Origin: Escherichia coli O127:H6 str. E2348/69
GTDB lineage: Bacteria; Pseudomonadota; Gammaproteobacteria; Enterobacterales; Enterobacteriaceae
Reading direction: 5' to 3' (one strand)
Length of the DNA stretch: 64,000 nt
Assembly (NCBI RefSeq): GCF_000026545.1
Contig: NC_011601.1
Shown: piece after piece, positions 2,424 through 33,484 of the stretch
Numbering within the stretch: position 1 is the first letter of the stretch
How the letters are laid out: each line of letters begins with the position of its first letter
Position numbers and translations under genes: made by a program
The notes under the pieces: model-generated
What the model was told of the DNA's origin: nothing
Database searches by the model: none
What the model saw: only the letters and a program-made list of their open reading frames with translations

Positions 2424-2673
2424 ACAGACCATTGACTGACTGAATGGTCTGTCATACTTTGTTACCTGCAAAGGGGAGTAACTTCATTGTCGGTCGATCG
2501 TCATTACGATGTGTGAAAAACCACATCCGGTCACCGGGCAACCCGAAAGGAATACGCAGACGTATTCCTTTTTTGTTGTAAGTGAGACCTTGCCGGAAGG
2601 CGAGGTCTATGCATAAAAAGCAGCGGCTGACGTCTTCCGACGTTGGCCGTTTTTTTATGTGTAAGGAACTTCT
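2424..2673 (+). promoter_or_regulatory. alx 5' leader (pH/Mn2+-responsive riboswitch-type element) with two hairpin + U-tract structures
   Basis: Hairpin aaaggaatacg..cgtattcc + T6 at 2546-2575; hairpin ggctgacgtc..gacgttggcc + T7 at 2625-2657 immediately 5' of the alx SD (gtaaggaa) and ATG at 2674. Confidence 0.55.
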
Positions 2674-3639
2674 ATGAATACTGTCGGCACGCCGTTGCTA
2701 TGGGGCGGATTCGCTGTTGTTGTCACCATTATGCTGGCTATCGACCTGTTGTTGCAGGGGCGTCGTGGGGCACATGCCATGACCATGAAACAGGCTGCGG
2801 CCTGGTCGCTGGTCTGGGTGACGCTGTCGTTACTGTTTAACGCCGCTTTCTGGTGGTATCTGGTGCAAACCGAAGGTCGCGCCGTTGCCGATCCACAAGC
2901 ACTGGCCTTTCTCACGGGTTATCTGATTGAGAAATCGCTGGCGGTCGATAACGTCTTTGTCTGGCTGATGTTGTTCAGCTATTTCTCTGTTCCGGCGGCA
3001 TTACAACGCCGCGTGCTGGTGTATGGCGTGCTTGGGGCGATTGTTCTGCGTACCATCATGATCTTCACCGGTAGCTGGCTGATTTCACAGTTCGACTGGA
3101 TCTTGTATATCTTCGGCGCATTCCTGCTGTTTACCGGCGTGAAGATGGCGCTCGCTCATGAAGATGAATCAGGCATTGGCGACAAGCCGCTGGTGCGCTG
3201 GCTACGCGGTCATTTGCGCATGACCGACACCATCGACAACGAGCATTTCTTTGTGCGTAAAAATGGTTTGTTGTATGCCACGCCGCTGATGCTGGTGCTG
3301 ATTCTGGTGGAGTTGAGCGACGTGATTTTCGCCGTGGATAGTATTCCGGCTATCTTCGCCGTGACCACCGATCCGTTTATTGTGCTGACCTCAAACCTGT
3401 TTGCGATCCTCGGCCTGCGTGCGATGTATTTCCTGCTGGCAGGTGTGGCAGAGCGTTTCTCGATGCTCAAATATGGTCTGGCGGTGATTCTGGTGTTTAT
3501 CGGTATCAAGATGCTGATTGTCGACTTCTACCATATTCCGATCGCCGTCTCGCTGGGCGTGGTGTTTGGCATTCTGGTGATGACGTTTATTATCAACGCC
3601 TGGGTGAATTATCGGCATGATAAGCAGCGGGTAGAATAA
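2674..3639 (+). CDS. alx: TerC-family inner membrane protein Alx (putative Mn2+ exporter)
   Basis: 321-aa ORF, multi-pass membrane protein; synteny. Confidence 0.9.
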
Positions 3640-3710: not shown

Positions 3711-5260
3711 CTGTCTCTTATACACAAATCCCCACCCGGGGATTTGTGATGTCTGTCAGTCTGCTTTAGGGGGACTCTTTCCATCCGGTAGTTTCCTTCC
3801 TCCCCGGCAGCGATTTTTTGAACTTTTTCCTCACCCGTTGATCTTCTCTTATATTTCATTTTCTTCGGGTCTGTTATGGTACTTTCTGATTGTTATTCAT
3901 GGGCTAACGAGCAGTTTGGACATGCCCGTCTCGGTGATCCGCGTCGTACACGACGCCTTGTGTCACTGGCCTCTTCTCTCGCTCAGCATGCAGGTCTTTC
4001 TATTGTGAAATCATCCCAGTCCACTGCTCAGGTTGAAGGTGCGTACCGCCTGATACGTAACCCGTCTGTGTCCCCGCAAGCCATTGCCGAAGCCGGATTT
4101 ACCGCCACTGTAAGGGCATGTGAGGCTCATCCGCTGCTCCTCGCGCTGGAAGACACCACCACCATTAACTTCAGTCACAGTACGGCATCTGATGACCTGG
4201 GGAATACCACCACTAACCCGAAGACGCGCGGGCTGCTGGCTCACTCTGTCCTGATGTACGCCCCCGACAGCGCCCTGCCAGTCGGTCTTATCGAACAGCA
4301 GCGCTGGAGTCGTGCCACGGACACCTACGGTGTTAAGCACCAGCGAAAAGAACGTCCCTATGAAGAAAAAGAAAGTTACCGCTGGCAGCAGGCTTCGGAG
4401 CGCATGGCCGAACGGCTGGGGGAGATACAGAAACGGGTAATCACTGTCTGTGACCGGGAAGCGGATATCTGGCATTACCTGCATTATAAAGTCAGCCACG
4501 GGCAGCGCTTCGTGGTGCGTGCAGCACAGAATCGCCGGCTGGAAGAAGCACCCGGCAAGCTCTTCGAACTGCCGGAAGTCCTGGCAACCGCGGGAAGCCA
4601 CACGCTGAATGTGATGCAAAAAGGCGGGCGGGCAGCCCGCCAGGCCCGGATGTTCATCAGTTACAGCGAAGTCAGCATAAAAAACCCCGACAACAGCGGC
4701 CAGGCGCTCCCGCTCACGTATGTCTGTTGCCGGGAGCAGGCAGAGGACGGCGCCTGCTGGCATCTGCTGACGTCAGAAAAAGTGGCGAGTGCCGCCGATG
4801 CGCGACGTATCGTCAGCCATTACGAGCGACGCTGGCTGATAGAGGAATACCACAAGGCGTGGAAAAGTGGTGGTACATGTGTGGAATCGCTGCGAATGCA
4901 GACCCGGGATAACCTCGAGCGCATGGTGGTTATCAAGGCGTTTATCGCGGTGCGGGTGCTGGGCCTGCGGCAGGGCGGTATCAGTGAAGAAACACAAAAT
5001 GACAGCTGTGAGAAAATACTGACGCCGACAGAGTGGAAACTGCTGTGGGTTAAGCTGGAAGGAAAACCGCTTCCGTCACAGATGCCGACACTGAAATGGG
5101 CCTGTCTGAAACTGGCGAAACTGGGGCGATGGCATGACAGCAAACGCACCGGTCGCCCCGGTTGGGTAGTCATGTGGGATGGCTGGTTCAGACTTCAGGA
5201 TATGGTTGAGGGTTACCTGGTGATGAAGTCTCTTGATCAGGAGATCTGATCAAGAGACAG
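3711..5260 (+). mobile_element. IS4-family insertion sequence, IS50/Tn5-like (about 1550 bp)
   Basis: Left end ctgtctcttatacacaaat (3711-3729) and right end agatctgatcaagagacag (5242-5260), inverted; one transposase ORF; flanked by identical ccaaaagggg at 3701-3710 and 5261-5270. Confidence 0.85.
3876..5249 (+). CDS. DDE transposase, IS4 family (Tn5 Tnp-like)
   Basis: 457-aa ORF; LGDPRRT N-terminal motif, catalytic-region motifs ALEDTT, VCDREADI, YERRWLIEEYHKAW; stop codon lies inside the right terminal repeat as in IS50. Confidence 0.9.
   Translation: MVLSDCYSWANEQFGHARLGDPRRTRRLVSLASSLAQHAGLSIVKSSQSTAQVEGAYRLIRNPSVSPQAIAEAGFTATVRACEAHPLLLALEDTTTINFSHSTASDDLGNTTTNPKTRGLLAHSVLMYAPDSALPVGLIEQQRWSRATDTYGVKHQRKERPYEEKESYRWQQASERMAERLGEIQKRVITVCDREADIWHYLHYKVSHGQRFVVRAAQNRRLEEAPGKLFELPEVLATAGSHTLNVMQKGGRAARQARMFISYSEVSIKNPDNSGQALPLTYVCCREQAEDGACWHLLTSEKVASAADARRIVSHYERRWLIEEYHKAWKSGGTCVESLRMQTRDNLERMVVIKAFIAVRVLGLRQGGISEETQNDSCEKILTPTEWKLLWVKLEGKPLPSQMPTLKWACLKLAKLGRWHDSKRTGRPGWVVMWDGWFRLQDMVEGYLVMKSLDQEI

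Positions 5261-33107: not shown

Positions 33108-33484
<377 letters not shown>

Follow-up and report, generated by a model that had tools for sequence, protein, structure and literature searches.

Between ygjR and alx of Escherichia coli O127:H6 str. E2348/69, two hairpins each run into a uridine-rich tract, which raises the question of what such structures do ahead of a gene that responds to pH and Mn2+: do they end transcription, form parts of a sensor, or both? We addressed this question computationally in a 64,000-nucleotide stretch of contig NC_011601.1, hereafter the window, in which a 282 nt spacer separates the two genes. The label alx for the TerC-family gene also appears in the K-12 and RM14723 annotations, and the ygjR/alx synteny agrees. 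The elements that frame the locus are listed below.

1387–2391: ygjR, a Gfo/Idh/MocA oxidoreductase gene, upstream of the spacer
2432–2460, + strand: predicted alx promoter, with -35 TTGACT (2432–2437), a 17-nt spacer and -10 TACTTT (2455–2460), read from the sequence and placed relative to the transcription start
2467, + strand: transcription start (+1) of the alx leader, giving a 5′ UTR of 207 nt (2467–2673)
2663–2668 and 2674–2676, + strand: Shine-Dalgarno AAGGAA and alx start codon, both conserved in alignment A2 (described below)
2674–3639, + strand: alx coding sequence, 321 aa, TerC-family Mn2+ exporter (Pfam TerC, E = 1.3e-53)

Published leader positions convert to the window by a single offset, nucleotide N being window position N + 2466, and this offset fits 18 of the 18 nucleotides named in three papers (A11, A37, A114, U125, C127, A131, A132, G134, C135, A137, G138, A149–153, C155 and A156). 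A published construct, ‘sraF-alx from -206’, is consistent with the start at 2467. The promoter scan did not list the predicted promoter at 2432–2460, the -10 element of which is weak. The first-pass annotation had begun its leader region at 2424; this position belongs to a palindrome of the promoter region, and transcription proceeds from 2467. Nested imperfect palindromes span 2396–2469 across the ygjR–alx spacer around a perfect 10-bp inverted repeat, ACAGACCATT / AATGGTCTGT (2424–2433 / 2443–2452), whose 9-nt loop holds the predicted -35 hexamer. An operator and a stem-loop at the 3′ end of ygjR are possible roles for the 2424–2452 palindrome; E. albertii and Superficieibacter share part of the 2396–2469 palindromes.

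The sequence identifies window 2467–2673 as the known alx leader, an alx-type Mn2+ riboswitch that the literature also calls the pH-responsive element (PRE), SraF, or the alx Mn2+/pH riboswitch, the name SraF dating from its first detection in cells as a discrete small RNA. The attribution of pH/Mn2+ riboswitch control to alx in the first-pass annotation was thus sound, the leader being identical to the K-12 MG1655 element at 285 of 289 positions, with every hairpin, U-tract, pause site, ribosome-binding site and named nucleotide in register. None of the four differences touches either hairpin: two lie upstream of the transcription start (2418 and 2439), one at 2490 (C24U) converts the first P3.1 pair from C–G to U–G, a variant also present in Citrobacter and Salmonella, and one at 2521 (A55C) lies in the P3.2 loop. 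The two aptamer substitutions are expected to be neutral. The RM14723 alx leader has the same sequence as that of the window, and the leader was found in 5419 of 5426 complete E. coli genomes. We found no annotated feature beneath it in the E. coli genomes that carry it; no riboswitch feature is annotated at mntP and alx in the K-12 record, or at alx in the RM14723 record. The alx leader with its two terminators, pauses and Mn2+/pH response has been known since 2009. Termination at both sites, the positions of the pauses, and the A37-dependent responses to Mn2+ and pH all come from published experiments. To this, the present analysis adds a coordinate map (the offset of 2466), a blind spot of Rfam, an evolutionary contrast between the two terminators, and a candidate natural allele that lacks one of them.

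We examined the leader across Enterobacterales, fetching 80 alx loci from species of this order; the leader lies directly upstream of alx in 77 of the 80. Alignment A3 covers the aptamer half (69 distinct sequences) and alignment A2 the expression platform (72 sequences). A covariance model, R1, was built from the 69 alx-type aptamers. The whole window leader folds with z = -7.7, none of 200 shuffled sequences being as stable, and all of its helices were recovered independently by an inverted-repeat search. The first 127 nt are predicted to fold into a three-way-junction Mn2+ aptamer with the following parts.

2467–2593 (nt 1–127), + strand: alx-type Mn2+ aptamer, three-way junction
2473–2480, + strand: L1, GGGGAGUA
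2485–2489 (nt 19–23), + strand: 5-nt linker ‘L2’
2490–2500 with 2528–2537, + strand: P3.1
2501–2507, + strand: L3, UCAUUAC, with the Mn-coordinating A37 at 2503
2508–2527, + strand: P3.2
2538–2579, + strand: hairpin 1, which is aptamer helix P4 or ‘hairpin B’; upper stem 2545–2572, U6 run 2569–2574, then GUUGU
2580–2593, + strand: 3′ strand of L1/P1.1

RNAalifold, applied to the 69 species with no structure supplied, returned a three-way junction with P1.1, P1.2, P3.1/P3.2 and the base of P4. When the fold from the literature was imposed on the same 69 aptamers, 93.8% of the cells were paired and 26 of 43 pairs showed compensatory changes, a level reached by none of 500 shuffles; by helix, these changes affected 6/10 pairs of P3.1, 5/6 of P3.2 and 14/16 of P4. 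L1, A11 and A37 are invariant in the 69 species. Model R1 scored the window at 121.5 bits (E = 2.8e-32), the window sequence being in its training set, and scored six held-out leaders (L030, L080, L005, L071, L016 and L050) at 60–99 bits. Three open reading frames overlap the leader (2444–2581, 2509–2616 and 2582–2677); we rejected them as coding, and with them attenuation by a leader peptide, since aptamer lengths of 98, 99, 101, 104, 106, 116, 129 and 142 nt, among others, do not differ by multiples of three, and the ATG at 2509 belongs to the P3.2 stem.

How this aptamer relates to the yybP-ykoY family (RF00080; E. coli mntP, L. lactis yoaB and X. oryzae) bears on how the leader can be recognized. 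The two have in common i) L1 with its GAGACC partner, ii) the leg of P3.1, a 7-nt asymmetric L3 and P3.2, with an invariant Mn-coordinating adenosine, iii) the P1.1 switch helix, and iv) a downstream TerC-family Mn2+ exporter, the family of ykoY itself. Both strands, 5′ GGGGAGUA and, some 100 nt further on, the 3′ GAGACC that closes P1.1, are invariant in the 69 species; searched as a pattern, they gave a single match in the window, where 0.01 would be expected, and a single match in the mntP leader. The alx leader differs in forming a three-way junction with a 5-nt linker in the place of P2, where yybP-ykoY members form a four-way junction with P2, in an L3 of UCAUUAC instead of ACAUACU, in carrying a terminator inside P4, in its pH response, and in going undetected by the Rfam model. 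In the experimental literature, Mn2+ stabilizes docking of the alx leader as seen by smFRET, and A37U abolishes both the pH and the Mn responses; the leader works like a yybP-ykoY Mn2+ riboswitch, and experimenters treat it as a structurally divergent one. By the operational definition of Rfam it is not a member.

A search with Rfam models for yybP-ykoY and the alx PRE had been put forward as a check on the riboswitch interpretation. At its gathering threshold (45 bits), RF00080 matched nowhere in the window; even at E<=10 it found nothing in the 341 nt of 2380–2720, and no separate alx or PRE model of Rfam matched the leader. This search is uninformative, since at E<=1 RF00080 also failed to match K-12 alx and its counterparts from 17 other genera. 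As a control, the crystallised aptamer of E. coli mntP (L002, 1462–1558) scored 41.6 bits against the cut-off of 45 (Rfam 15). Since an aptamer of solved structure falls below it, the gathering cut-off is too strict for enterobacterial members, and because enterobacterial alx leaders likewise escape RF00080, the missing match does not refute the riboswitch interpretation. The RF00080 alignment to mntP stops at P4 and leaves out the 3′ GAGACC strand of P1. Weak matches to STnc370, STnc240, RydC and others (E = 0.3–5) were dismissed as generic shapes of a hairpin with a U-tract. The published structure explains the silence of Rfam by the different L3 of alx and by its lack of P2, which leaves a junction of three instead of four helices, with an L2 capping loop standing in for P2. 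When the alx L3 sequence was looked for in Rfam in a 2026 preprint, only Bacillales were recovered, which fits with enterobacterial alx leaders being missing from the Rfam family. Kinship between alx and yybP-ykoY is not demonstrable by profile search either: the best placement of R1 on the mntP leader was the true aptamer, reached through the L1 shell only, at 4.2 bits and E = 0.28. The relationship rests on motif-level features together with published biochemistry. Rfam thus returns a false negative for an entire enterobacterial riboswitch subclass, and automated annotation can be expected to go on missing alx leaders.

Downstream of the aptamer, the expression platform contains the second hairpin and the structures that compete with it.

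2585–2608, + strand: hairpin C, P5 of the OFF fold, without a U-tract; it sequesters the 3′ strand of L1/P1.1 (GAGACCUUGCC)
2622–2656, + strand: hairpin 2, which is ‘hairpin D’ or P6; stem 2622–2651, U7 run 2650–2656
2594–2602 (CGGAAGGCG) with 2631–2639 (CGUCUUCCG), + strand: alternative C/D helix of the ON fold, from an inverted repeat, covariation and the literature
2608–2610 (nt 142–144), + strand: pause 1, mapped in vitro and seen in NET-seq (literature)
2643, 2649 and 2650 (nt 177, 183 and 184), + strand: pause 2 cluster (literature)

The two stem-loops with U-tracts noted in the first-pass annotation at 2546–2575 and 2625–2657 fall on the hairpins with U-tracts at 2545–2576 and 2622–2656, where the terminator scan returned + strand sites at 2545–2572 and 2622–2651. 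Both have the layout of an intrinsic terminator, a stable G+C-containing stem-loop followed by a U-rich tract, and both exceed a U-tail score of 5, which only 0.09% of window positions attain. Hairpin 1 was scanned as 12 pairs (2545–2572) with a 4-nt loop and the tail TTGTTGTAAG; P4 alone folds at -19.4 kcal/mol (z = -6.9), its upper stem at -13.8 kcal/mol, and its tail scores 5.57. Hairpin D was scanned as 13 pairs (7 G–C) with a 4-nt loop and the tail TTTTTATGTG; its energy is -17 to -20 kcal/mol and its tail scores 5.77. With the covariation seen in other species, these values place the hairpins beyond chance. Both coincide with published terminators, TB and TD, as the first-pass annotation had surmised in calling them intrinsic-terminator-like. 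TB stops transcription at nt ~108–110 (window 2574–2576) and TD at nt ~190 (window 2656), yielding an SraF-sized product; a 2025 study places the two at 110 and 190 nt. They were described as rho-independent terminators in 2013, and in a 2022 study the products of both persisted in a chase, which marks them as termination products and not pauses. As for placement, hairpin 2 ends 16 nt before the alx ATG (2657 to 2674), as annotated, and it alone stands immediately before the ribosome-binding site; hairpin 1, for which the same had been claimed, ends ~88 nt upstream of AAGGAA, is aptamer helix P4, and has hairpin C between it and the site. The U-tract coordinates had also been offered as pause sites, which they are not: pausing maps to 2608–2610 and to 2643, 2649 and 2650. 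We considered hairpin 1 as a terminator of ygjR and rejected this, because alx transcription starts 79 nt ahead of this hairpin, which is part of the covarying aptamer.

The conservation of the expression platform argues for a switch. Across 72 species, hairpin D was 95.8% paired with 4 covarying pairs, and the C/D helix was 98.9% paired with compensatory changes in 4/9 pairs, for instance GGAA/UUCC in E. coli versus GAAU/AUUC in Citrobacter. Hairpin C (-18.8 kcal/mol) was 92.6% paired, with zero compensatory changes in the 72 species. Terminator D cannot form alongside the C/D helix, which draws on its loop and 5′ arm; two mutually exclusive helices that both covary carry, in comparative terms, the signature of a real switch. 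The predicted energies are -39.2 kcal/mol for the OFF fold, with hairpins C and D, and -20 to -26.5 kcal/mol for the ON fold. With RNA polymerase at the pause at nt 184, the free nascent RNA has its energy minimum in hairpin S together with C/D, and the OFF fold is again the more stable by nt 190; nascent-length folding as modeled here reproduces the behavior expected from the published kinetic model. Thermodynamic folding with P1.1 enforced did not yield the ON fold, and as hairpin D still formed, the ON fold would need kinetic help. In this the alx leader resembles btuB and thiC, pausing-dependent kinetic translational riboswitches of E. coli in which the OFF fold is likewise much more stable and the RNA gains the ON fold only while it is being transcribed, with the help of pauses; unlike them, alx has two intrinsic terminators in its leader, one inside the aptamer.

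Taking these observations with the published experiments, we consider that the leader is very probably an alx-type Mn2+ riboswitch with a kinetic switch, whose output is mainly translational with a smaller component of read-through at TD. In this model, hairpin 1 is helix P4 of the aptamer formed by the first 127 nt. The 3′ strand of P4 is a U6 run in most E. coli, which would make it the signal-independent partial terminator TB, at which a large share of transcripts would end short of a complete aptamer; according to the 2025 study, termination at P4 precedes formation of the metal pocket. By default (OFF), hairpin C would capture the 3′ L1/P1.1 strand, hairpin D with its U7 run would then form TD, and the freed 5′ L1 strand would pair with the ribosome-binding region. 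The ON state would be favored by Mn2+ binding, and by alkaline pH through raised Mn2+ levels and Mn2+ sensitivity; P1.1 would be kept in the aptamer, and the C loop would pair with the loop and 5′ arm of D in the C/D helix, so that terminator D does not form and the ribosome-binding site is open. The main output would be translation initiation, with TD read-through as the smaller, transcriptional component. We infer that TB acts only as a constitutive damper, and likewise the size of the TD read-through contribution in vivo. An RNA-seq study found the leader co-transcribed with alx and no separate RNA, its authors asking for re-annotation, and the efficiency of TD in vivo is uncertain on that account.

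A different account of the same hairpins holds that they are selected only as riboswitch helices, that their U-tracts are incidental, and that termination is an in vitro side effect. To weigh it, we scored 77 leaders for a stable hairpin with a U-tail by an energy-based procedure, an ungapped scan having missed bulged stems and under-counted TD. For TB, the fit of this account is strong. A TB tail score of at least 5 occurred in only 6 of 77 leaders, namely the window, two further Escherichia (L003 and L004), two Pseudocitrobacter and one metagenome-assembled genome; 14 scored 4.5–5, including Citrobacter, Salmonella and Kluyvera, and 53 scored below 4.5. As far as these sequences indicate, only a few lineages outside Escherichia have a strong TB U-tail. 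P4 keeps a conserved base, GCAAC/GUUGU, below a tip that varies between species from a 5-bp stub to over 40 nt; P4 is short (5 bp) in Klebsiella and Enterobacter, and in E. albertii, Siccibacter colletis, Superficieibacter electus and Rouxiella silvae the tip has taken up REP/ERIC-like elements, which leave the aptamer halves intact and 130–180 nt further apart. In Phytobacter diazotrophicus, insertions lie in the P3.2 loop and in the stretch that separates the TD U-tract from the ribosome-binding site. The loci with insertions in these five species are L005 (1117–1410), L016, L050, L071 and L030 (1134–1500).

Variation within E. coli points the same way for TB. The U6 allele of the window is the majority form, present in 5279 E. 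coli genomes, and in 127 of ~5415 complete genomes, among them SE15 (NC_013654.1) and EC08 (L084, 150–161), the 3′ strand of P4 (window-equivalent 2567–2578) reads CCUUUCGGGUUG where the window has CCUUUUUUGUUG. This replacement of UUUUUU by UUUCGG removes the U-run and turns a CC/UU internal loop into Watson–Crick pairs, giving a perfect 19-bp P4 that is strengthened from -19.4 to -31.6 kcal/mol. UUUCGG is thus predicted to be a natural TB-null allele. A conserved P4 helix with a variable tip, together with an allele that loses the U-run and keeps the helix, implies that the target of selection is the P4 helix, not TB. The UUUUUU/UUUCGG pair, the REP/ERIC-like insertions, and Klebsiella and Enterobacter with their short P4 offer natural variants that could serve to separate the structural role of P4 from its role as a terminator.

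The notion of incidental U-tracts does not carry over to TD. A TD tail score of at least 5 was found in 75 of the 77 leaders, from Escherichia to Yersinia, Serratia and Pantoea, with a median stem of -17 kcal/mol, and the U-run after hairpin D lies outside the 11 strong pairs of the stem. Deletion of the leader raises transcriptional output, and the leader was first detected in cells as SraF. TD looks like a selected feature of these leaders, and the account of incidental U-tracts, which fits TB well and TD not, is on the whole unlikely. Covariation of P3, P4, D and C/D and the order-wide conservation of the TD U-tract are direct observations on these alignments, as are the coordinates and folds given above. 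The platform departs from the common pattern in several places. E. coli 6EVA (L085, window-equivalent 2648–2656) has an interrupted TD U-tract, GCCGCUGCUUUUU instead of GCCGUUUUUUU, and in 910 more genomes 1–2 positions within 2620–2676 depart from the window sequence. Two Atlantibacter species (L028 and L038, 1391–1500) lack the aptamer core of P3, L3 and P4, with GGGGAGUCACUUCC fused directly to a hairpin-C-like sequence, and keep hairpin D, the U-tract and the ribosome-binding site; A. hermannii (L029) has the full aptamer. Rouxiella aceris (L072) keeps only hairpin D and the U-tract.

A strongly conserved terminator that competes with a covarying helix could also be read as classical attenuation, in which Mn2+ and alkaline pH chiefly suppress termination at one or both hairpins and translation follows the mRNA level. 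The structural half of a terminator/antiterminator layout is present at TD, where C/D overlaps hairpin D and covaries, and a U-tract kept in 75 of 77 species against a background of 0.09% also speaks for such a scheme. Transcriptional reporters respond as well, 5-fold to pH and 2.7-fold to Mn, a response that their authors attribute to hairpin D. The corresponding translational reporters rose 68-fold and 21-fold, however, a response 4 to 14 times stronger than the transcriptional one, and termination in vitro was nearly independent of pH, at ~46% (pH 7.2) and ~43% (pH 8.5) for TB and ~13% and ~10% for TD in the 2022 study, so that the signal dependence of TD in published assays is small. We found no helix that competes with TB, which lies inside the aptamer and precedes the Mn2+ pocket, and DMS patterns of the expression platform were largely alike with and without Mn. 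Because termination barely responds to pH, pure attenuation is disfavored, and we regard it as quite improbable; of the attenuation proposed at these hairpins in the first-pass annotation, a minor component at most survives, control being mainly translational. It is scarcely credible that the leader is primarily an independent trans-acting sRNA gene with TD as its own terminator and alx reached by secondary read-through, as its discovery as a discrete sRNA and the strong conservation of TD might suggest, because C/D covariation makes sense only for a cis switch that opens the adjacent ribosome-binding site and the leader is co-transcribed with alx, besides which it lies directly upstream of alx in nearly all species sampled and the literature consulted reports no trans target.

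Returning to the translational switch with partial terminators, the histories of TB and TD appear to diverge, and we found no discussion of this contrast in the alx-leader literature searched, Nechooshtan 2009 aside. We tentatively propose that TD and the C/D helix are ancestral and selected in every Enterobacterales alx-type riboswitch, making the class perhaps a true dual switch of transcription and translation, and that TB arose recently, in a restricted set of lineages, as a by-product of the hypervariability of the P4 tip. On this proposal, TB would constitutively halve alx transcription in E. coli and be absent from the ~2% of genomes with UUUCGG, such as SE15, which would then have higher basal alx expression, and the whole class would be invisible to RF00080.

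Some features elsewhere in the window and in relatives deserve mention. Between alx and sstT, the window has a Tn5/IS50-like insertion sequence (3711–5249) with the end sequence CTGTCTCTTATACACAA at 3711–3727 and a transposase of 457 aa at 3876–5249 (Pfam Tnp_DNA_bind, DDE_Tnp_1 and Dimer_Tnp_Tn5); the element is absent from K-12 and RM14723. In Salmonella enterica subsp. diarizonae (L013, 2490–2550, - strand), a strong match to the Rfam family of the sRNA STnc310 (81.4 bits) lies directly 3′ of alx on the opposite strand. Further along the window, the RNase P RNA gene rnpB (33108–33484, - strand) gave a full-length class A match of 319.7 bits.
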